A DNA stretch of 64,000 nt. It comes from Bacilli bacterium (GTDB taxonomy: Bacteria; Bacillota_I; Bacilli_A; RF39; UBA660). The DNA is taken from positions 73,414-137,413 of the forward strand of contig JAGALD010000065.1 in the NCBI GenBank assembly GCA_017625395.1. The letters run 5' to 3'. A program made the position numbers and the translations under genes. Below the pieces are notes generated by a model. That model was not told the DNA's origin. It did no database searches and saw only the letters and a list, made by a program, of their open reading frames with translations. Below, in pieces: positions 12,663-43,410 of this stretch. Position 1 is the first letter of the stretch, and each line of letters begins with the position of its first letter.

Positions 12663-13151
12663 TTATTTTTCCTCCTTGTTTGTGGATCCAATTCCACCTT
12701 TTCTTATATTTTTTATTTCTTTTTCATCATCCACTGTTAAGAAATTTGTAAATATGCCTTGACATATGGCATCTCCTTTTTTAACAATGTAATCATTTGT
12801 CCCTTCGTTTTGAATTTTTAACCACGCATGTCCCTCGTTAGATTCATTGTTGTAGTAATCGCTTTCGAATATTCCTACTTGATTACACATCCGTATATTG
12901 TATTTAAATCCCATACTACTTCTTACTAATAACATCATCATTTCATTTGATTTCATTTTTACTTTTATTCCCGTAGGTATTTTCATAATTTCTCCTGGTT
13001 TTAAAATGAAATCATATAGTGCAAAAAAATCATATCCAGCACTAAATTTTGTACTTCTTTTAGGTAAAGAGTATTCCTCGTATAGTTTATAATCATCGAA
13101 TACATCTTTTTTAAATTGTTCATAGCTTATTTTTTCGAATCCTCTTTCCAT
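12663..13151 (-). CDS. dUTP diphosphatase-like protein (YncF/YosS-type trimeric dUTPase family)
   Basis: The segments KRSTKFSAGYDFFA, VRSSMGFK, GIFESDYY, GDAICQGIF and RKGGIGST are characteristic dUTPase motifs. Confidence 0.75.
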   Translation of the reverse strand: MERGFEKISYEQFKKDVFDDYKLYEEYSLPKRSTKFSAGYDFFALYDFILKPGEIMKIPTGIKVKMKSNEMMMLLVRSSMGFKYNIRMCNQVGIFESDYYNNESNEGHAWLKIQNEGTNDYIVKKGDAICQGIFTNFLTVDDEKEIKNIRKGGIGSTNKEEK

Positions 13152-13164
13152 ATATATCTCCTTA

Positions 13165-13390
13165 TAAAAAAACTCATCCAGTAAAGGACGAGCTTAATCG
13201 TGGTACCACCTTAATTAATAGATATTCTATCTATTCTCTTGTTTAATAACGCATTTTTGCGTACCAGTCTAAAAAATATTCGACCAGTCTGTTCGGGAAC
13301 CATTTTCAATAACTATCTATATCTTTTTTCACCATTCAAGACTCTCTTTGATAGAATCATTATATCTCTTTCCGTCTTTACATTTAAAAT
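13165..13390 (-). promoter_or_regulatory. T-box riboswitch leader, probable Met (AUG) specifier, with terminator/antiterminator
   Basis: Read on the minus strand, the leader shows stem I elements (CAAAGAGAGTC...AATGGTGAAA) and a specifier-loop candidate (TTGAAAATGGTTCC). The conserved T-box sequence is AATTAAGGTGGTACCACGATTAAGC. The terminator is CTCGTCC-TTTACT-GGATGAG followed by T6. Confidence 0.8.
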
Positions 13391-22165: not shown

Positions 22166-23734
22166 CTATATATCTTCAAATAAAGCTTTAGCTTTTTCTT
22201 TTAATGTTAATTCTGTATTTTTTATATTTTCATGTTCTTCACAAAATTTAAAATAATTTTTATCTTTTTTATATTGTTCTATATATTCATTCCATTCTTT
22301 TTCTGATATACATATTACTTTATATTTTTTCATAAATATCTTTTCAAATATTTTATCTACAATATATATATCACTATTTAATTGTTCTGCAAGGCCATTA
22401 AGCTTGGATATTAATATCACATTTGTATCACTTGCTGCTACAGGAATAATATCAGAACTTAATAATCTTGCGATATTTCCGAATTCTTTATCAAATGCTA
22501 GATCTTTCAATTTTATCCAACTACTTCTAATATTGGAAATTATATTTTTTTGTGGATTACATAACGTATTTCCAATTCTTATTTGCTTAAAAGAAGAATT
22601 ATCAACTATACTTTCCTCTACTTCTTGACTACTTATATTATTATTGTTATTTGATAACTGCTTTTCGGACTCATCCTTTTTTGTTTCTTTCAATAAAACA
22701 TTTGTTTGGTCATTGTTATATTCTACTAAAAGATTTAATAGACATACTTCAAATATTATTTTTGGATTCTCTGATTTTCTAATTTTTTCTGATAATGAAT
22801 CTAATTCTTTTATAATAAAACATTCATGTGAATTATATTTTTTTTCATTTATTATTTTATTACTTAAATATTCAATAACACCATTTATTAGTTTTGTTAA
22901 ATCTACACCTGATTCATAATATTTATCAATTTTATCAATCAAACATGCAAAATCCTTTTTTTCATATAAATCGAGAAACTCTTCTAATTCTTTTTTCGAT
23001 ATATTACCAGAAATTTCCTTTATAGTATCAACATCAATTTTCATTTCATTATACGAATTTGCTTTTTCTAAAATTCCAATAGCATCTCTTAATCCACCAT
23101 TTGAATATCTTACGATTTCATCTATTGCATCTGACACAATATTGATATTTTCTTTTTCAGATATTTCTTCTAATTTTTGGTGCATTGCGTTATCACTAAT
23201 TTTATTAAATTCCAACGTTTGACATCTAGAAATTATTGTTGCCGGAACCTTATTCAACTCTGTTGTTGCTAATACAAATATTGCATGTTCAGGCGGTTCT
23301 TCTAATGTTTTTAATAATGCATTAAATGCACCAGGAGAAAGCATATGAACTTCATCCACAATATATACTTTATATCTTAATTCAGACGGAACAAATGAAA
23401 TTTTATTTTTTAATTCTCTAATTTCATCTACTCCATTATTAGATGCTGCATCTATTTCTATTATATCTATACATTCTTTTTCATGAGTTGCAATACAATT
23501 ACTACATTTTCCACAAGGTATTTGTTCATCAGATAAATTTAAACAATTAACTGTTTTTGCAAATATTTTTGCAATTGATGTTTTACCCGTACCTCTTGGT
23601 CCATAGAATAAATATGCATGCGCTACTTTTTTATTTTTAATAGCATTTTTCAAAATTTTTAATGTTACATTTTGACCAGCCACTTCATTAAAATTTTTTG
23701 GTCTATATTTTCTATATAATGCTTGGTAATTCAT
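22166..23734 (-). CDS. dnaX: DNA polymerase III tau/gamma subunit
   Basis: It has GPRGTGKTS (Walker A), VYIVDEVHMLS, SRCQTLEF and a Zn module (CGKCSNC). Confidence 0.95.
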   Translation of the reverse strand: MNYQALYRKYRPKNFNEVAGQNVTLKILKNAIKNKKVAHAYLFYGPRGTGKTSIAKIFAKTVNCLNLSDEQIPCGKCSNCIATHEKECIDIIEIDAASNNGVDEIRELKNKISFVPSELRYKVYIVDEVHMLSPGAFNALLKTLEEPPEHAIFVLATTELNKVPATIISRCQTLEFNKISDNAMHQKLEEISEKENINIVSDAIDEIVRYSNGGLRDAIGILEKANSYNEMKIDVDTIKEISGNISKKELEEFLDLYEKKDFACLIDKIDKYYESGVDLTKLINGVIEYLSNKIINEKKYNSHECFIIKELDSLSEKIRKSENPKIIFEVCLLNLLVEYNNDQTNVLLKETKKDESEKQLSNNNNNISSQEVEESIVDNSSFKQIRIGNTLCNPQKNIISNIRSSWIKLKDLAFDKEFGNIARLLSSDIIPVAASDTNVILISKLNGLAEQLNSDIYIVDKIFEKIFMKKYKVICISEKEWNEYIEQYKKDKNYFKFCEEHENIKNTELTLKEKAKALFEDI

Positions 23735-23924
23735 AATTCCTCCTTTCTTTTTTCCTATTATATTATAGCATATTTATATTTTTTTACTTAACTTTATTTT
23801 GTTTTTTTGTTTAAATATTTTTAATCTACTTTAAGCATTCATATCTAATAACTTTATTCACATCAAACATAATATTTTTTATTAGATATACATTTATATT
23901 CTCAATTATTTTTTCCCCTTCATG

Positions 23925-23940
23925 TGTTTCACGTGTAACA
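23925..23940. promoter_or_regulatory. parS: parS site (ParB/Spo0J binding), perfect match to the consensus
   Basis: TGTTTCACGTGTAACA has the reverse complement TGTTACACGTGAAACA, which equals TGTTNCACGTGAAACA. Confidence 0.75.
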
Positions 23941-23956
23941 TTATATTTTACTGTTT

Positions 23957-23972
23957 TATTTCCCGGGAAATA
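23957..23972. promoter_or_regulatory. Noc-binding site (NBS), perfect 16-bp palindrome
   Basis: TATTTCCCGGGAAATA contains the B. subtilis NBS consensus ATTTCCCGGGAAAT. Confidence 0.7.
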
Positions 23973-24034
23973 TTTTATTTTCTTCGTTTTACCTTTTATT
24001 TGTTTTTTTATTTTTTTCTTTTTCCACTTTTATA

Positions 24035-24050
24035 TGTTTCACGTGTAACA
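24035..24050. promoter_or_regulatory. parS: parS site, perfect match to the consensus
   Basis: TGTTTCACGTGTAACA, identical to the unit 1 site. Confidence 0.75.
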
Positions 24051-24066
24051 TTATCTTTTACTGTTT

Positions 24067-24082
24067 TATTTTCTGGAAAATA
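24067..24082. promoter_or_regulatory. NBS-like variant palindrome
   Basis: TATTTTCTGGAAAATA differs from the NBS by a symmetric C-to-T / G-to-A change in the arms and by one central base. Confidence 0.4.
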
Positions 24083-24143
24083 TTTTATATTCTTCGTTTT
24101 ACCTTTCATTTGTTTTTTTATTTTTTCTTTTTCCACTTTTATA

Positions 24144-24159
24144 TGTTTCACATGTAACT
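24144..24159. promoter_or_regulatory. Degenerate parS-like site (2 mismatches)
   Basis: TGTTTCACATGTAACT has the reverse complement AGTTACATGTGAAACA. Confidence 0.35.
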
Positions 24160-24175
24160 TTATCTTTTACTGTTT

Positions 24176-24191
24176 TATTTCCTGGGAAATA
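24176..24191. promoter_or_regulatory. NBS-like site (1 mismatch)
   Basis: TATTTCCTGGGAAATA. Confidence 0.55.
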
Positions 24192-24295
24192 TTTTTTTCT
24201 TCTCCGTTTTTTCTTTGATTTGTTTTTTTTATTTTTCCTTTTTCCACAACTTTTTGTTTATGTTCATATTTACTCTTTTTTTCATCTTTCTTATT

Positions 24296-24311
24296 TATTT
24301 CCCGGGAAATA
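24296..24311. promoter_or_regulatory. Noc-binding site (NBS), perfect
   Basis: TATTTCCCGGGAAATA, 25 nt from the tadA stop. Confidence 0.7.
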
Positions 24312-24334
24312 TTTTTTGATAAAAAAAAAGACAA

Positions 24335-24748
24335 TTATTTGTCCTTTTCTCTTATTTGCTTAAATGCATTTTGGATTATTATTGTGCTTTTTTCTATTAT
24401 TCCTTTATCTTTTATTTGGATAAATTTATTTTCTGTTAAATCATTATTATTATTTGTTGATACTGCTGCATACACTATTTTGCTTATTTTACTACTTTTA
24501 ATTACTTCCTTACACATATTACACGGTTCTAGTGTGGTATATAAAATACAATCGTTTAATCTCCAATTTTTTTTCTTTTTATTTGCTTTTTCTATTGCTA
24601 TAATTTCTGCATGCCTAGTAACTATATTACTACTATCTCTTTTGTTATGTGCCCTTGATAATACCTTTCCATCGCATACTATTACCGCACCTATTGGAAT
24701 TTCATTCTCTTTATATGCTATTTCTGCTTCTTTGTATGCTATTTTCAT
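24335..24748 (-). CDS. tadA: tRNA-specific adenosine deaminase (start at the internal Met; the track ORF extends to 24853 across the SRP RNA gene)
   Basis: It begins MKIAYKEAEIAYKENEIPIGAVIV and has the HAEIIAIE (HAE) and EPCNMC (PCxxC) zinc motifs. Confidence 0.85.
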   Translation of the reverse strand: MKIAYKEAEIAYKENEIPIGAVIVCDGKVLSRAHNKRDSSNIVTRHAEIIAIEKANKKKKNWRLNDCILYTTLEPCNMCKEVIKSSKISKIVYAAVSTNNNNDLTENKFIQIKDKGIIEKSTIIIQNAFKQIREKDK

Positions 24749-24782
24749 ATAATATTTATCTTCTTTCAACCTAATCAACTCC

Positions 24783-24866
24783 AAAAAAAATGATGCACAT
24801 AAGTATAAAAACATTAAGGCTGCTATTTTCCAATCCTGACCTGGTTCTGCCATACTTATTGCATCG
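24783..24866 (-). ncRNA. ffs: Small-type signal recognition particle RNA (4.5S/scRNA-like) with terminal U-run
   Basis: The minus strand reads GATGCAATAAGTATGGCAGAACCAGGTCAGGATTGGAAAATAGCAGCCTTAATGTTTTTATACTTATGTGCATC followed by T8. The domain IV core is CCAGGUCAGG-AUU-GGAA-AAU-AGCAGCC, compared with E. coli CCAGGUCAGG-UCC-GGAA-GGA-AGCAGCC, so the stem change is compensatory. The 5' and 3' ends pair (GATGCA.ATAAGTAT / ATACTTAT.TGCATC). Confidence 0.75.
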
Positions 24867-24923
24867 ATATAATTTTACTATAAATATTAAAAAAAAACAA
24901 ATAAATTAAAAAAAAAGAAGATA

Positions 24924-33738: not shown

Positions 33739-33965
33739 TGTGGAAAAAAGAAAAGATAAAAATATTAAAAAAAAATATCCACAAGATATCCACAAAGTTT
33801 TCCATAGATAATAACTTTATTTGTAAAGGAAAAAATAAGTTATCCACATTATCCACAATTTTTTATTAACATGGTATTTTATAGTTATTAACACCCCTGT
33901 GAATTCTGTTAATAAGTACTTAATTTAATGTAGATTTTTTAAATAATTCACAAAATTGTGAATAA
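33739..33965. other. oriC: oriC, dnaA-upstream DnaA-box cluster
   Basis: Boxes found are ATATCCACA at 33775-33783 and 33786-33794, abutting perfect TTATCCACA at 33840-33848 and 33849-33857, TGTGGAAAA at 33739-33747, and TGTGAATAA at 33957-33965. Confidence 0.8.
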
Positions 33966-37653: not shown

Positions 37654-39513
37654 ATGAATTATGATGTTATTGTTATAGGTGGGGGGCATGCTGGATGTGA
37701 AGCTTGTCTTGCTACTAGTAGATTAGGTAAGAATACTTTACTTATTACAGGAAATAAAAAAAATATTGCAGATATGCCTTGTAATCCTTCAATTGGTGGG
37801 CCTGCTAAAGGAATTATTGTAAGAGAAATTGATGCCTTAGGCGGAGAAATGGGAAAAAATGTTGATAAAAGTTTTCTTCAAATGAAAATGCTTAACACTA
37901 AAAAAGGACCTGCTGTTAGAGCATTAAGGGCACAAGCTGATAAAATAACTTATAAAGAAGAGATGATAAAGACTATTGAATCCCAAGAAAATCTTACTAT
38001 TCTTGAGGCAATGGCTGAAGATTTAATAGTAGAAAATGGAATAATTAAAGGTGTTGTTCTTGCTGATGGAAAAGAGATATATGCTTCTGTTGTTATTGTT
38101 ACAACAGGGACATATCTTAAAGGTGTTATTCTTTATGGTTCAACTAGAATATCTAGTGGTCCACATGATGAGAAACCTTCATTGCATTTAAGTGATGCTT
38201 TTAAAAGATTAGGTTTTACTATAAAAAGGCTTAAAACTGGAACTCCTCCTAGAATAAAAAAATCAAGTATTGATTATTCTAAAGCAGTTATTCAACCTGG
38301 CGATGAAGAAATGCATAATTTTTCTTTTTCTAACAAACTTAATTATAATGTAGATGAACAATTACCTTGTTATTTGATTTATACAACAGAAGAGACACAT
38401 AATATTATTAAAGAAAATCTTACTAAATCTAGTATGTATGGTGGGTATGTTGAAGGTGTTGGTCCTAGATATTGTCCATCAATAGAAGATAAAATTGTTA
38501 AATTTGCTGATAAAGATAGACATCAAATATTTTTAGAACCAGAAAGTATTTATTATGATGATATTTATATTCAAGGATTTTCTACTAGTATGCCGCATGA
38601 TGTTCAAGAAAAAATGGTTCATAGTTTACCTGGATTAGAAAATGCAGAAATTGTTAAATATGCTTATGCAATAGAGTATGATGCGATAGATTCAATGCAA
38701 TTAAAGCCGTCATTAGAAACAAAATTGGTTGAAAATTTATATACTGCTGGTCAAATTAATGGTACTAGCGGATACGAAGAGGCTGCAGGTCAAGGTCTTA
38801 TTGCAGGAATTAATGCTGCTAGAAAATTAGATGGAAAAGAACCAATAATTCTAAAAAGAAATGAAGCATATATTGGAGTTTTAATTGATGATTTGGTTAC
38901 TAAAGGTGTAATAGATCCTTATAGACTTCTTACTTCTCGTGCTGAATATAGATTATTATTAAGACATGATAATGCTGATATGAGACTTATGCCATATGGT
39001 AGAGAGATTGGTCTTATAAATGATGATACTTACTCAATTTATACTGATAAAATTAATGGAATTAATAAGTTATATGATAAGTTAAAAAGCATAAAACTCA
39101 CTCCTAAAGAGGAAGTTAATAGGTATTTAGAGTCTTTGGGAAGTGCTACTTTATATGATAGTATTACTCTTTATGATTTATTAAAACGTCCTGAAATAAG
39201 TTATGAAAATATAAGACAATATATCGATGAAGATTTTTCTTTAGAGGTTATAGAACAAGCTGTTATAAATATAAAATATGATGGATATATAGCAAAAGCA
39301 AATAAAGAAGCGTTAAAGATGCTTGAATATGAAAAAATTAAGATTAGTGAAGATTTAGATTATTCGTTAGTTCCAAATCTTGCTAAAGAAGCAATTCAAA
39401 AACTTAATGAAATAAAACCTGTTTCTGTTGGTCAGGCAATTAGAATTAGTGGAGTAAATCCTGCTGATATTTCAATGCTTTTATTATATTTAAGAAGAGG
39501 TAATCATGAATAA
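37654..39513 (+). CDS. mnmG: tRNA uridine-5-carboxymethylaminomethyl modification enzyme MnmG
   Basis: It has the FAD motif VIVIGGGHAGCEA, and its 619-aa length is typical of GidA. Confidence 0.95.
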   Translation: MNYDVIVIGGGHAGCEACLATSRLGKNTLLITGNKKNIADMPCNPSIGGPAKGIIVREIDALGGEMGKNVDKSFLQMKMLNTKKGPAVRALRAQADKITYKEEMIKTIESQENLTILEAMAEDLIVENGIIKGVVLADGKEIYASVVIVTTGTYLKGVILYGSTRISSGPHDEKPSLHLSDAFKRLGFTIKRLKTGTPPRIKKSSIDYSKAVIQPGDEEMHNFSFSNKLNYNVDEQLPCYLIYTTEETHNIIKENLTKSSMYGGYVEGVGPRYCPSIEDKIVKFADKDRHQIFLEPESIYYDDIYIQGFSTSMPHDVQEKMVHSLPGLENAEIVKYAYAIEYDAIDSMQLKPSLETKLVENLYTAGQINGTSGYEEAAGQGLIAGINAARKLDGKEPIILKRNEAYIGVLIDDLVTKGVIDPYRLLTSRAEYRLLLRHDNADMRLMPYGREIGLINDDTYSIYTDKINGINKLYDKLKSIKLTPKEEVNRYLESLGSATLYDSITLYDLLKRPEISYENIRQYIDEDFSLEVIEQAVINIKYDGYIAKANKEALKMLEYEKIKISEDLDYSLVPNLAKEAIQKLNEIKPVSVGQAIRISGVNPADISMLLLYLRRGNHE

Positions 39514-40210
39514 AGAACAATTTGTTTTAGAAGTACAAAAATTAGGTATAAAAATTGATGATGATAAACTTTTAAAGTTAGAAAAATTCTATGATTTACT
39601 TATAGATTGGAATAATAAGATAAATTTGACTACTATTGTGGAGAAAGAAGATGTTTATTTAAAGCATTTTTATGACAGTTTAACATTATTTAAAGAAATT
39701 GACTTGACTACTGATTTAACTTTATGTGATGTTGGAAGTGGGGCCGGATTTCCTGGAATTGTTTTAAAAATATTTTTTCCAAATTTAAGAATTACTTTAG
39801 TTGATTCTTTGAATAAAAGGGTTATTTACTTAAATGAAATAATTAAAGAACTTAAGCTTGAAGATATTATTGCAGTTCATTATCGAATGGAAGATTTTTC
39901 TAGAATTAATGAAGAGGTTTTTGATGTTATAACTGCAAGAGCTGTTTCTAATTTAAGTGTTTTATCTGAAATATCAGTTAGAGCCTTAAAAGTTGGTGGG
40001 AAACTTGTATTTATGAAAGCTAATTGTGATGAAGAATTAGAAAACATTAGTAATATCTATAATAAACTTGGGTTGAAACTTAATTCTGTTAATAAATTTG
40101 TTTTACCTATAGAACAAAGCAATAGGGCACTTGTATGTATAGAAAAAACAAAAACTACAGATAAAAAATATCCAAGAACTATTGATAAAATAAAAAGAAA
40201 TCCATTGTAA
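39506..40210 (+). CDS. rsmG: 16S rRNA (guanine527-N7)-methyltransferase
   Basis: It has DVGSGAGFPGI and follows mnmG. Confidence 0.9.
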   Translation: MNKEQFVLEVQKLGIKIDDDKLLKLEKFYDLLIDWNNKINLTTIVEKEDVYLKHFYDSLTLFKEIDLTTDLTLCDVGSGAGFPGIVLKIFFPNLRITLVDSLNKRVIYLNEIIKELKLEDIIAVHYRMEDFSRINEEVFDVITARAVSNLSVLSEISVRALKVGGKLVFMKANCDEELENISNIYNKLGLKLNSVNKFVLPIEQSNRALVCIEKTKTTDKKYPRTIDKIKRNPL

Positions 40211-40275: not shown

Positions 40276-41646
40276 ATGGATAGCAACAATGAAGTAGTTT
40301 ATTTATATTTAGATGATATTATTCCTAATAGATTTCAACCAAGAGAAGTTTTTGATGATCAAGCTTTAAAAGAATTAGCTGTGTCAATTAAAGAACATGG
40401 TGTCATTCAACCTATAATTGTTCGAAAAGTTGAAAATAAGTATGAGATTATTGCTGGTGAAAGAAGATATAAAGCTTCAACTATGGCTGGTCTTACAAAA
40501 ATTCCTGCTATAGTTAAGAATTTAGATGATAAGGAAAGTTCTAAAGTTGCTTTAATTGAAAATTTGCAAAGAAGAGATTTAACACCAATTGAAGAAGCTA
40601 GAACTTATCAAAAAATATTAGAACTTGAAAGTAATATGACTCAAGAGCAATTGGCTCAAACTATGGGAAAAACACAATCTGTTGTTTCTAATAAGTTAAG
40701 ACTTTTAGCGTTACCTGATGAAGTACAAGATGCTTTATTAAAAGAAAAAATATCAGAAAGACATGCAAGAAGTTTGTTAAATATTGAAAATAAAAATGAT
40801 CAGATAAAGATGTTAGACAGAATAATAGCAGAGAGAATGACTGTAAGAGAACTAGATAAGGAAATTAAGAGTATGAATGATAATCAAAATAATAGTATGA
40901 ACTTGTTTGGAAGTATGGGAATTAATCCAGCACCTGTAAGTATTACAGAACCAACCGTTGAAGCACCAGCTGTTGCAACACCAAGTGTTGGTCCTACAAT
41001 ATCTATTAATAATGATTCTAATAATAATGCTAATGTTAATACTAATACTAATAGTAGTGTTTCTGTAGATAATATTTTTAATCCAACTGCTGTTGATATA
41101 AACAAAATAAGAGAAAATGCAGTTGATATTGTTGCTCCAAGTGCTCCGACTGTGGATGTAAAAGATTTAATGAAGGATAATTCAGATAATAGTCCTAAAG
41201 ATTTTAAATTCGTTCCATCTTTTGGTAGTAATACGGAACAAGAAAAAACTGTTAATAATCCAGCACCTTCATTTGGTTCATTTGGATTGTTTGGTGCATC
41301 TAATAATAATTCATCTAGCGTTAATTCATTAAATAGTGATAATAGTGTTGCATCTGTTCCTGTTACACCACCAGTTGCACCTAATTTTGGATTTTTTGGA
41401 AATACTTCTGTAACTCCTACAGTAAATGATGAATCTTCTAACAATAACGTAGCAAGTACAATTGCTGCTCCTAAATTTAGTATTAATGCTTTTGGTGGAA
41501 GTAGTAAGAAAGATGTTACTCCAGCAGTTACAGATATAAAAAGTGCAATAACTGGTCTTGAGTCTAAAGGATATAAAGTAGTATTTGAAGAATTAGATTC
41601 AAATGATACTTATCAAATGACAATTAAGATAGATAAAAATGTTTAG
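40276..41646 (+). CDS. noc: Nucleoid occlusion protein Noc (ParB paralogue) with a long internal low-complexity insert
   Basis: It has a ParB N-domain (IIPNRFQPREVF, IIAGERRYKAS). The HTH region GKTQSVVSNKLRLLALP...ISERHARSLL matches remembered B. subtilis Noc (GKKQSTIANKLRLLKLP...ITERHARAL) rather than Spo0J. The C-terminus IKSAITGLESKGYKVVFEELDSNDTYQMTIKIDKN resembles the Noc C-terminus. It sits between rsmG and soj, as in Bacillus. Confidence 0.8.
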   Translation: MDSNNEVVYLYLDDIIPNRFQPREVFDDQALKELAVSIKEHGVIQPIIVRKVENKYEIIAGERRYKASTMAGLTKIPAIVKNLDDKESSKVALIENLQRRDLTPIEEARTYQKILELESNMTQEQLAQTMGKTQSVVSNKLRLLALPDEVQDALLKEKISERHARSLLNIENKNDQIKMLDRIIAERMTVRELDKEIKSMNDNQNNSMNLFGSMGINPAPVSITEPTVEAPAVATPSVGPTISINNDSNNNANVNTNTNSSVSVDNIFNPTAVDINKIRENAVDIVAPSAPTVDVKDLMKDNSDNSPKDFKFVPSFGSNTEQEKTVNNPAPSFGSFGLFGASNNNSSSVNSLNSDNSVASVPVTPPVAPNFGFFGNTSVTPTVNDESSNNNVASTIAAPKFSINAFGGSSKKDVTPAVTDIKSAITGLESKGYKVVFEELDSNDTYQMTIKIDKNV

Positions 41647-41753: not shown

Positions 41754-42545
41754 ATGGGGAAGATGATTTCATTAGTTAATCAAAAAGGTGGGGTTGGTAA
41801 AACAACAACAAGTATTAATCTTTCTGCATCTTTAGCATATTTAGGAAAGAAAGTTTTATTATTAGACTTGGATCCTCAAGGAAATACTACTACTGGTATT
41901 GGTATGAATAAGGGAGATATTGATAAAACAATTTATGATGTCTTAATTGGCAGGTGTGATATTAAAGAAGCTATAATTCATACAAAATATAAAAGATTAG
42001 ATTTATTACCTGCTACAGTTAATCTTAGTGGATTAGATACTGAATTTTTTGAAAGATCTAAAGAAGAACCTAATTTTGTTAAAGGTGCCCAGTTAAAAAA
42101 TAAAATTGAATTAGTTAGAGATGAATATGATTTTATAATAGTGGATTGTCCACCATCTCTTAGTATAATTACAATTAATGCATTAACTGCTTCAAATTCT
42201 GTAATAATACCTGTTCAGTGTGAGTTTCTTGCTTTGGAAGGAATTATGCAATTGTTAAATACAATTATGATGGCTCAAAAGCAATTAAATCCAGAACTTG
42301 ATATAGAAGGTGTTTTACTTACTATGTTAGATTCAAGAGCAAATCTTGGTTTTGAAGTAGTTGAGGAAATTAGAAAGTATTTTAAAGAAAGAGTATATAA
42401 TACGATAATCCCTAGATTGGTACGTCTTGCTGAGTGCCCTTCACATGGGAAACCTATAATTGCATATGATCCTAAATGTAGGGCTACTGATGCATATTTA
42501 AATTTAGCTAAGGAAGTGATTGAAAGAAATGGACAACAATTATAA
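41754..42545 (+). CDS. soj: Chromosome partitioning ATPase Soj/ParA
   Basis: It has the deviant Walker A NQKGGVGKTTT and the segments LLLDLDPQGN and IIVDCPPSL. Confidence 0.92.
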   Translation: MGKMISLVNQKGGVGKTTTSINLSASLAYLGKKVLLLDLDPQGNTTTGIGMNKGDIDKTIYDVLIGRCDIKEAIIHTKYKRLDLLPATVNLSGLDTEFFERSKEEPNFVKGAQLKNKIELVRDEYDFIIVDCPPSLSIITINALTASNSVIIPVQCEFLALEGIMQLLNTIMMAQKQLNPELDIEGVLLTMLDSRANLGFEVVEEIRKYFKERVYNTIIPRLVRLAECPSHGKPIIAYDPKCRATDAYLNLAKEVIERNGQQL

Positions 42546-43410
42546 GAGAAGAGCATTAGGAAAAGGTCTTGAAGAACTTTTCAATAATGAACAAATTGAT
42601 TTTGATAGTATTGAAGAAAAAATAATTGATTCAACTCCAAAGGATGAAATTGTAGAATTGGAACTTAGTGAGTTGAGATCAAATCCTTATCAGCCAAGAA
42701 AAGTTTTTGATGAAGATAAACTTTTAGAACTTTCAAATTCTATTAAAGAACATGGTGTTTTTCAACCAATAATAGTTAAAAAAAGTTCTGTAAAGGGTTA
42801 TGAGATTATTGCTGGTGAACGTCGTGTAAAAGCTTCAATTATGGCTGGTCTTACACATATACCGGCAATTGTTAGAGAATTTACTGATTCTGAAATGATG
42901 GAAATAGCGCTTCTTGAAAATTTACAGAGAGAAAATTTAAATGCTATTGAAGAAGCAATGGCATATAAAAATTTGATTAATAGTATGTCAGTAACACAAG
43001 AAGAACTTGCAAAAAGACTTGGAAAAAGTAGAAGTCATGTTACTAATATGTTAGGGCTTTTGTCGTTACCTGAAGAAGTAAAAGATATGATTATTGATAA
43101 TAAAATTTCAATGAGTCATGCAAGAGTTCTTAGTAAAATGGAAAACAAAGATGAAGTAATTGCTTTGGCTAATAAAATTATAAGTGAGAATTTGAATGTT
43201 AGAGACTTGGAAAGTGTTTCTAAAAATGAAAATATTGAAAAGATTCATAAAATAAAGAAAAAATCAAATTCTGAATATTCATATGTTGAAAATATGATGT
43301 GCGAAAAACTTGGAACTAAGGTTAAGATTAATAATAATAAGATAAATATTTCATTTAGTAATGTTAATGATTTAAATAGAATTTTAGAAATTTTAAATAT
43401 TAATGAGTGA
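42520..43410 (+). CDS. spo0J: Chromosome partitioning protein Spo0J/ParB (the start may be the Met at 42529)
   Basis: It has the N-terminal RALGKGLEELF, the segments PYQPRKVFDE and IIAGERRVKAS, and the HTH region GKSRSHVTNMLGLLSLP...ISMSHARVL. Confidence 0.9.
   Translation: MKEMDNNYKRRALGKGLEELFNNEQIDFDSIEEKIIDSTPKDEIVELELSELRSNPYQPRKVFDEDKLLELSNSIKEHGVFQPIIVKKSSVKGYEIIAGERRVKASIMAGLTHIPAIVREFTDSEMMEIALLENLQRENLNAIEEAMAYKNLINSMSVTQEELAKRLGKSRSHVTNMLGLLSLPEEVKDMIIDNKISMSHARVLSKMENKDEVIALANKIISENLNVRDLESVSKNENIEKIHKIKKKSNSEYSYVENMMCEKLGTKVKINNNKINISFSNVNDLNRILEILNINE

Follow-up and report, generated by a model that had tools for sequence, protein, structure and literature searches.

In the 64,000-nucleotide stretch of the genome of an uncultured gut Bacilli bacterium analysed here (from contig JAGALD010000065.1; hereafter the window), the spacer between the tadA and dnaX genes is filled by a tandem array in which parS, the loading site of the partition protein ParB (Spo0J), is interleaved with the Noc-binding site (NBS), the loading site of the ParB paralogue Noc. 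Both the site types and the proteins are already known, and what is new is that the two sites form a composite tandem array, that this arrangement has been conserved at a single locus throughout a large clade, and that it goes together with a Noc devoid of the N-terminal helix by which its well-studied homologues are anchored to the membrane. A full-text search of the literature found neither a pairing nor an alternation of parS with NBS described, and no account of a Noc without the helix; an earlier note on this DNA had likewise known of no description of the composite module. We favour, with moderate confidence, the interpretation that the array is a composite centromere, predicted from its sequence to load both ParB and the anchor-less Noc. 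The occurrence of the same paired layout at the same locus in more than a hundred related species, together with the anchor-less Noc, suggests that Noc works at the centromere in these bacteria, and the array probably marks the centromere of an abundant group of gut bacteria that is uncharacterised at the level of cell biology.

Structure of the array

The array extends over window positions 23906-24315 and consists of three units of 109-110 bp followed by a degenerate fourth unit that carries an NBS only. Tandem Repeats Finder places it at 23910-24247 (period 110, 3.1 copies, 89% matches, score 523), and a separate repeat search recovers three copies of 110 nt, with starts at 23906, 24016 and 24125, as well as four copies of a 32-nt sub-repeat that contains the NBS, the fourth copy being 24284-24315. 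Each full unit joins TGTTTCACGTGTAACA (parS) to the 16-bp NBS TATTTCCCGGGAAATA, with the centres of the pair 32 bp apart, as in the earlier description, and the two programs agree with that description on three repeats of 109-110 bp plus a degenerate fourth. The reverse complement of TGTTTCACGTGTAACA is TGTTACACGTGAAACA, which fits the Firmicute parS consensus, and the other palindromes of the array conform to the NBS palindrome ATTTCCCGGGAAAT (16-mer TATTTCCCGGGAAATA). In their best copies the predicted sites are identical to the 16-mers that experiments have defined for parS and NBS, and they are well beyond chance expectation for the window.

In total the array holds three parS (0, 0 and 2 mismatches) and four NBS (0, 3, 1 and 0 mismatches; Table 1). 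A motif scan confirms the earlier count of two perfect parS copies and one with 2 mismatches. The corresponding tally for the NBS stands as far as the two perfect copies and the copy with 1 mismatch are concerned, and its description of the remaining copy as a symmetric variant is only roughly right, since that copy, TATTTTCTGGAAAATA, has symmetric arms around an asymmetric centre, TG. The mismatches in the array copies are solely C-to-T or G-to-A transitions, several of which fall at the central CpG.

Strand-matches to parS with 3 or fewer mismatches number 15 in the 64-kb window against 1.5 expected, and a count of 15 was reached in 0 of 100 shuffles. Outside the array, every parS-like sequence in the window has at least 2 mismatches and every NBS-like sequence at least 3, which accords with the earlier statement that no further NBS centred on CCCGGG and no further perfect parS occur in the 64 kb. 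A BLAST search of the window with the 110-bp unit returned the three tandem copies and no other match; the possibility that the unit is a dispersed repeat, which the earlier note had raised as a threat to its own proposal, is thereby ruled out within the window.

The spacing of the sites has been viewed as evidence for a particular geometry, and here the earlier claims did not hold. At 10.5 bp per turn the distance of 32 bp is equal to 3.05 turns and the unit of 110 bp to 10.5 turns, and successive units would therefore face opposite sides of the helix rather than presenting all seven sites on one face. The proposed curvature from phased T-tracts did not survive either: with respect to a periodicity of 10-11 bp, the T-tract centres of the array do not exceed unit-preserving shuffles. 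Across the clade, distances between NBS and parS centres peak at ~26, 36-37, 46-48 and 57 bp, corresponding to a phase of ~n+0.45 turns (Rayleigh test at 10.5 bp, p 3e-9 for raw counts and 2e-4 after similar spacers are collapsed), and the periods of 17 independent regular arrays lean to whole turns (R 0.46, p ~0.03 at 10.5 bp). Loci noted for this weak phasing are L009, L013, L020, L023, L053, L057, L068, L081, L090, L091, L126, L207, L208 and L212. The 32-bp centre distance of the window is off-peak, and the window lineage, with its 32 and 110 bp, is one of the exceptions to the phasing of the clade. Clade-level phasing is suggestive only, given that it spans a short range of distances, partly fixed by the scan, in related lineages; the weak ~10.5-bp periodicity hints at a stereospecific arrangement.

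Two further short elements accompany the palindromes in part of the clade. The element AGTGGAAAAAG is found in the window units (24022-24030, 24131-24139 and 24240-24248) and in L001, L004, L207, L208 and L212, and in degenerate units on the oriC-proximal side it is replaced by TGTGGAAAA, which corresponds to TTTTCCACA and departs from a DnaA box at one position. A fourth element, AAACGRAG, is common to the units of the sub-clade to which the window belongs. As candidates for a third motif conserved throughout the clade, these elements were rejected, no k-mer being enriched across it. Relaxed DnaA boxes in the window number 17 against 12 expected, which is no enrichment.

Conservation of the paired sites among relatives

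A look-up of the exact window DnaX sequence gave no match. Relatives were reached through DnaX homologues of decreasing identity, and their contigs were taken regardless of the motifs that they contain. Although the earlier note had named a lack of conservation in relatives as the finding that would undo its proposal, interleaved parS and NBS occur upstream of tadA or dnaX in 8/8 of the lineages so sampled (DnaX identity 99-52%). The closest strains (99%; L001 and L002) have 6-7 parS and 8-9 NBS with a period of ~109, and at 77% identity (L003), where the tadA-dnaX spacer is just 41 bp, 2 parS and 2 NBS are located upstream of tadA at a contig end. In L004-L006 (66%) 4-6 perfect parS alternate with NBS at a period of ~125; there are 6 parS and 7 NBS with a period of ~116 in L208 (64%), at least 8 pairs with a period of 83 in L207 (63%), 3 parS and 3 NBS in L210 (60%), 3 parS and 4 NBS with a period of 105 in L212 (56%), and 5 parS and 6 NBS, distributed on both sides of tadA, in L214 (52%).

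For a broader view, a scan that took a single genome for each species looked for an exact NBS core lying 6-36 nt from a parS core, and at least 119 species-level genomes were found to have such an adjacent pair. Among the matches listed, nearly all are metagenome-assembled genomes (MAGs) of uncultured "Bacilli bacterium" from animal guts. Clostridium sp. CAG:710, CAG:1000 and CAG:417 and Ca. (Allo)scybalousia are represented among them, as are MAGs that carry the label Mycoplasma, Tenericutes or Erysipelotrichaceae, and none of the matches listed is a cultured Bacillus, Staphylococcus, Listeria or Clostridium. The NCBI taxonomy assigns the named relatives to "Bacilli incertae sedis" only, and their finer placement is, tentatively, in orders of the RF39/RFN20 type in GTDB. 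Eight of the records (L015, L016, L024, L043, L051, L061, L072 and L080) are labelled Muribaculaceae or Bacteroides helcogenes. These eight contigs have the order gyrB-gyrA-tadA-dnaX and a GC content of ~25-30%, and with their Bacilli-type gene order they are probably mis-binned or mis-labelled MAGs.

The extent of the arrays varies, with three or more consecutive alternating pairs in 30/135 clade loci. The longest are those of L091 (12 parS and 13 NBS, period 79), L090 (9 pairs, period 75) and L069 (11 pairs over 2.5 kb). When the clusters were placed by tblastn with window proteins, in loci with DnaX identity down to 36%, 70 fell between gyrA and tadA, 21 between tadA and dnaX, ~50 at equivalent contig ends and 7 elsewhere, mostly in dnaX. 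The gene for the signal recognition particle (SRP) RNA, ffs, is directly upstream of tadA in 16/17 loci checked, and from these placements it follows that the general map of the clade is gyrA, array, ffs, tadA, array, dnaX, with most relatives having their array between gyrA and the SRP RNA gene. As a negative control we used 80 dnaX loci from a metagenome DnaX scan, which come mostly from distant bacteria: sites were present in 5/80, the closest low-GC ones, and no parS or NBS sites were seen in the 75 loci of unrelated bacteria.

What has been conserved at this locus is the two palindromes and not the DNA between them. From one lineage to another the unit length varies over 55-197 bp and the spacers show no relationship, and yet both palindromes stay perfect, which points to selection on the predicted sites themselves. 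The copies within one array are recent duplicates, and it is therefore the comparison between lineages that supplies the evidence of selection. A further line of evidence comes from the variable linker of dnaX, within which a perfect NBS is found in ~30 species (34 copies, ~1.02-1.18 kb from the dnaX start; the loci include L008, L014, L016, L021, L029, L031, L035, L036, L038, L040 and ~20 more). The embedded NBS is mostly translated as (I/N)ISREI and in a few cases, in another frame, as NYFPGN; it is therefore the DNA word and not the peptide that is conserved, and these copies are independent evidence of selection on the NBS as DNA. The dnaX gene of the window itself has no embedded perfect NBS. 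Recurrent NBS are also found in relatives in the downstream gene for a 243-amino-acid methyltransferase. In all, the ~930 kb of flanking DNA from relatives holds 43 perfect NBS against 6 parS outside the clusters, so that the NBS in these genomes reach beyond the array as isolated copies in nearby genes, at ~1 per 22 kb of flanks.

The Noc and Spo0J proteins and the surroundings of the array

The genes for the two proteins that would recognise the paired sites are both within the window. Compared with solved structures, the product of the noc open reading frame (ORF) scores best with Noc (Noc 7ng0, 1e-61; Bacillus subtilis Noc 7ol9, 5e-55; Spo0J 6sdk, 4e-51) and that of the spo0J ORF with Spo0J (6sdk, 1e-61; Noc, 5e-47). 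Jalal et al. defined four specificity positions, which read RTAG in ParB and QKKR in Noc (PMC7383237). For recognition of the NBS, Q173 and R201 have to be joined by a lysine at one of the positions 179 and 184 (as applied here, K or R at 179 and/or 184), and specificity for parS is given by R173, which is invariant among parS binders (PMC7383237). The window proteins show Q-K-A-R (Noc) and R-M-S-S (Spo0J) at the four positions, in line with the earlier proposal that the recognition-helix regions of the two products carry the matching signatures. The GERR and ENLQR boxes for binding of cytidine triphosphate (CTP) are intact in both proteins. Throughout the clade both paralogues have been kept, and 16/16 of the Noc homologues examined read Q-K-[S/A/T]-R and possess the conserved C-terminal domain. 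Their linkers, mostly acidic, are 100-150 amino acids long; that of the window protein measures ~220 amino acids and is rich in FG, N and S.

The earlier note had assumed a canonical Noc, and in this respect it was mistaken. The window Noc is without the N-terminal membrane-targeting amphipathic helix (amino acids 1-10): in the alignment, residue 5-6 of the window protein falls opposite residue 26 of the Geobacillus Noc, such that ~25 N-terminal residues are gone, and all 16 clade homologues (16/16) likewise begin at the equivalent of about residue 26 of that protein. An in-frame TAA stands 8 codons upstream of the assigned noc start, and 7 nt ahead of the ATG there is a ribosome-binding site, GAGGG. 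In B. subtilis the helix is needed for function, and it is reported to be extremely conserved across Noc homologues (PMC4331003). A B. subtilis variant from which it has been removed, NocNdelta10, retains CTP binding and the ability to clamp DNA and has lost the binding to liposomes and membranes (PMC8429893); this variant is non-functional for nucleoid occlusion in B. subtilis (PMC4331003, PMC8429893).

The positions of the sites and of the neighbouring genes are collected in Table 1. From the array to the DnaA-box cluster the distance is 9.4 kb, close to the ~9.5 kb of the earlier estimate; the array is situated on the dnaA side of the replication origin (oriC) and on the lagging side of tadA-dnaX, and the sign of the GC skew switches at ~33-34 kb. 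On the array side the genes are ordered gyrB, gyrA, SRP RNA, tadA, array, dnaX, ybaB and recR, and tadA and dnaX, both on the minus strand, are read in the direction in which replication moves away from oriC. In the window, tadA is preceded by the SRP RNA gene, and because the longest tadA ORF (24335-24853) overlaps that gene, the true tadA start is probably the internal ATG at 24748. The opposite side of oriC has rnpA, yidC, jag, mnmE, mnmG, rsmG, noc, soj and spo0J, including the order rsmG(gidB)-noc-soj-spo0J next to oriC (rsmG ORF, 39506-40210), and noc-soj-spo0J are separated from the array by 16-18 kb across oriC. A T-box leader at 13181-13387 on the minus strand (Rfam, 111.9 bits), upstream of the ORF 12663-13151, is unrelated to the array.

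Table 1. Sites of the array and associated genes, with positions in the window
Feature	Position	Strand	Description
parS-1	23925-23940		TGTTTCACGTGTAACA; minus-strand match to TGTTNCACGTGAAACA, 0 mismatches
NBS-1	23957-23972		TATTTCCCGGGAAATA, perfect
parS-2	24035-24050		TGTTTCACGTGTAACA; minus-strand match to TGTTNCACGTGAAACA, 0 mismatches
NBS-2	24067-24082		degenerate TATTTTCTGGAAAATA, 3 mismatches, all transitions
parS-3	24144-24159		TGTTTCACATGTAACT, 2 mismatches
NBS-3	24176-24191		TATTTCCTGGGAAATA, 1 mismatch (CpG to TpG)
NBS-4	24296-24311		TATTTCCCGGGAAATA, perfect; oriC-proximal end of the array; no partner parS
dnaX	22166-23734	minus	downstream of the array; ORF; homologues have DNA polymerase III gamma/tau Pfam domains
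tadA	24335-24748	minus	upstream of the array; deaminase Pfam matches in relatives
SRP RNA (ffs)	24777-24875	minus	Rfam RF00169, 55.9 bits; also in 16 relatives
dnaA	32328-33689	minus	
DnaA-box cluster / oriC	33739-33965		upstream of dnaA; TTATCCACA repeats; GC-skew switch
noc	40276-41646	plus	NBS-type ParB paralogue, 456 amino acids; residues Q173 K179 A184 R201
soj	41754-42545	plus	ParA-family ATPase; adjoins spo0J
spo0J/parB	42529-43410	plus	ORF 42520-43410; residues R173 M179 S184 S201; N-terminal LGKGL ParA-interaction motif

Interpretation and comparison with known systems

If the array is a composite centromere, it would have arisen by tandem duplication of a module made up of one loading site for ParB/Spo0J and one for Noc. 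ParB and Noc are CTP-gated clamps that load at their own sites and then slide (PMC7053999, PMC8429893), and interleaved loaders for two such families should therefore yield a mixed ParB/Noc domain beside oriC. In such a scheme parS would nucleate ParB-CTP clamps and the NBS would nucleate Noc-CTP clamps, and with the two sites alternating every 20-60 bp, both proteins would be expected to build up within one stretch of a few hundred base pairs. The product would be one mixed nucleoprotein complex ~9.5 kb from oriC that moves with the segregating origin. Since this Noc is without a membrane anchor, the DNA-membrane tethering seen in B. subtilis is not expected; Noc would more likely serve as a second type of clamp within or beside the partition complex, or as a regulator there, and its long variable linker would be free for other contacts. 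The likely purpose would be to couple a process under Noc control, such as the choice of the division site or the initiation of replication, to the position of the origin. Precedents are to be found in B. subtilis and Staphylococcus aureus: Spo0J and Noc of B. subtilis act together from the origin region on the placement of the Z-ring (PMC6852036), and an effect of Noc on initiation has been reported (PMC5540599). A bolder version, which we put forward tentatively and hold to be possible rather than probable, is that the Noc of this clade has been converted from a membrane-tethering occlusion factor into a component of the partition complex, in which a composite centromere with helically phased spacing (periods near whole turns, parS-NBS distances near half-integer turns) would let the clamps interact with or regulate each other directly at the origin.

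Several observations weigh against the interpretation of the array as a composite centromere. With 290.2 bits on the NCBIfam model TIGR04285 (nucleoid_noc), the window Noc is below the cut-off of 315 bits, the match covering profile positions 1-200 (the Spo0J ORF reaches 237.5 bits on the same model); the long linker splits the match, and we attribute the low score to this. At many loci 5-10 parS are accompanied by one to three NBS, and strict 1:1 pairing belongs to sub-lineages, not to the entire clade; moreover, because the scan required one adjacent pair, it provides no count of clade members that have no pairing. The isolated NBS described above raise the prospect of a Noc distributed more widely along the chromosome, as it is in B. 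subtilis. Copy numbers, which come mostly from short-read assemblies, may be collapsed: the window has 3 units as compared to 6-7 in the near-identical strains L001 and L002 (99% DnaX identity), and L206 (4830-4930) has 1 parS and 2 NBS as compared to at least 8 pairs in L207 (1-650), which encodes an identical DnaX protein, a discrepancy that reflects either collapse of the repeats or real hypervariability in copy number. Finally, co-loading and the physiological output of an anchor-less Noc are speculative.

Among the alternatives, Noc bound at the NBS might act as a boundary or roadblock that limits the sliding of ParB (and perhaps SMC) clamps and so holds ParB together on a short stretch, clear of the gyrA, ffs, tadA and dnaX transcription units. 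Tightly bound proteins do stop the sliding of ParB-CTP in vitro and in vivo (PMC7053999), and the NBS often cap the arrays, with two extra oriC-proximal copies in L001 and L002, and the arrays of L214, L210 and the window have an NBS at either end; extra NBS are also present 1-2.5 kb downstream, inside dnaX, in many species. Noc, however, also works as a clamp and departs from its site once CTP is bound (PMC8429893), which would make for a leaky barrier, and strict alternation would set a barrier beside every loader and so choke spreading rather than bound it. Nor do the NBS have a consistent polarity relative to oriC, there being 126 NBS-to-parS and 116 parS-to-NBS short pairs in the gyrA-to-dnaX direction. 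On balance we regard this explanation as unlikely.

We likewise assign a low probability to hitch-hiking, whereby parS and NBS would each have been selected near oriC for separate reasons in the permissive spacers of the gyrA-tadA-dnaX region, with their alternation a by-product of duplication and no coupling between them. It is true that the copies of an array are recent duplicates (89% identical), which means that alternation within one array is not independent evidence, and that many loci are parS clusters with few NBS and that NBS occur alone in nearby genes. Close pairing, with centres 21-60 bp apart, nonetheless recurs in arrays of unrelated unit length and spacer and was found in every one of the lineages sampled by DnaX similarity, and the spacing is modulated by the helical repeat, for which neutral hitch-hiking makes no provision. 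The arrays have also expanded many times over in separate lineages, with both sites in the unit each time.

It is very improbable that the CCCGGG-centred palindrome is instead bound by a transcription factor or a restriction-modification component, or that one ParB-family protein binds both palindromes. In favour of such schemes one can cite the alanine in place of lysine at position 184 of the window Noc and its score below the NCBIfam cut-off, the dual-specificity ParB variants that have been made in the laboratory (PMC7383237), and the CpG-to-TpG changes in degenerate copies, which are expected for methylated C. The match, though, spans the full 16-bp NBS and not just CCCGGG; the combination of Q173, K179 and R201 is sufficient for NBS specificity and the R173 of Spo0J is the determinant for parS (PMC7383237); and the clade has kept both paralogues throughout.

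A reading of the repeat as coding sequence, as a structured RNA, or as a terminator or attenuator of dnaX, and not as a protein-binding array, is extremely improbable: a 98-amino-acid ORF (23922-24218, plus strand) spans the array and the palindromes could form hairpins in a tadA-dnaX read-through transcript, but the ORF has no family match, the periods of 109 and 110 are not multiples of 3 and vary among relatives, no Rfam family falls within the array in the window and 17 relatives, no terminator-like site was found, and the 16-bp palindromes are loopless exact matches to two known operators.

The preferred interpretation, of a composite centromere, bears on what has become the textbook case of a duplicated DNA-binding protein, in which ParB took on segregation and Noc the control of division via membrane tethering. 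The clade described here would be a natural counter-example, with the two operators joined at one locus in more than 100 species and the membrane feature of Noc removed. It raises the question of what role an anchor-less Noc clamp has, and of whether ParB and Noc clamps cooperate with, block or recruit each other, for which the defined spacings of the arrays (26, 32, 36 and 47 bp) are suited to clamp-loading, roadblock and single-molecule work in vitro.

As is the case for parS of the B. subtilis type, the parS of the window have a 16-bp consensus, are close to the origin, and are accompanied by an R173-type ParB with an adjoining Soj/ParA gene. In B. subtilis, ~ten single parS are dispersed over hundreds of kb, one of them within spo0J, whereas the good sites of the window are all in one tandem array beside NBS and none is in spo0J. 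Clusters of several parS within a few kb near oriC, comparable in this respect to the window array, are present in Caulobacter, Corynebacterium, Streptomyces and Myxococcus, but they are irregular and are not known to include an operator for a second ParB-family protein. Tandem regularity is found in sopC of the F plasmid, which consists of 12 repeats of 43 bp, each with an inverted repeat bound by SopB, and which has one operator type and is located beside the parAB genes. The window array resembles sopC in its head-to-tail repeats, in having a palindromic site for a ParB-family CTPase in each, and in its variable copy number, and it differs in that it is chromosomal, combines two operator types for two paralogues, and is 16-18 kb away from the par genes.

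With the Noc systems of B. subtilis and S. aureus, the window shares an identical 16-bp NBS, the gene order rsmG-noc-soj-spo0J, the residues Q173, K179 and R201, the CTP-binding boxes and a similar C-terminal domain. The NBS of such systems are spread over the chromosome arms and are missing near the terminus. Noc is confined to the Firmicutes (PMC7383237), and the NBS that have been described are scattered single sites for a protein that requires its N-terminal amphipathic helix (PMC4331003, PMC8429893); those of the window are clustered with parS and go with a helix-less Noc that has a long linker. The action of B. subtilis Spo0J and Noc on the Z-ring (PMC6852036) is a genetic interaction exerted from separate, dispersed sites with no shared cis element, unlike the arrangement described here, in which the predicted loading sites of both proteins are interleaved in one array.

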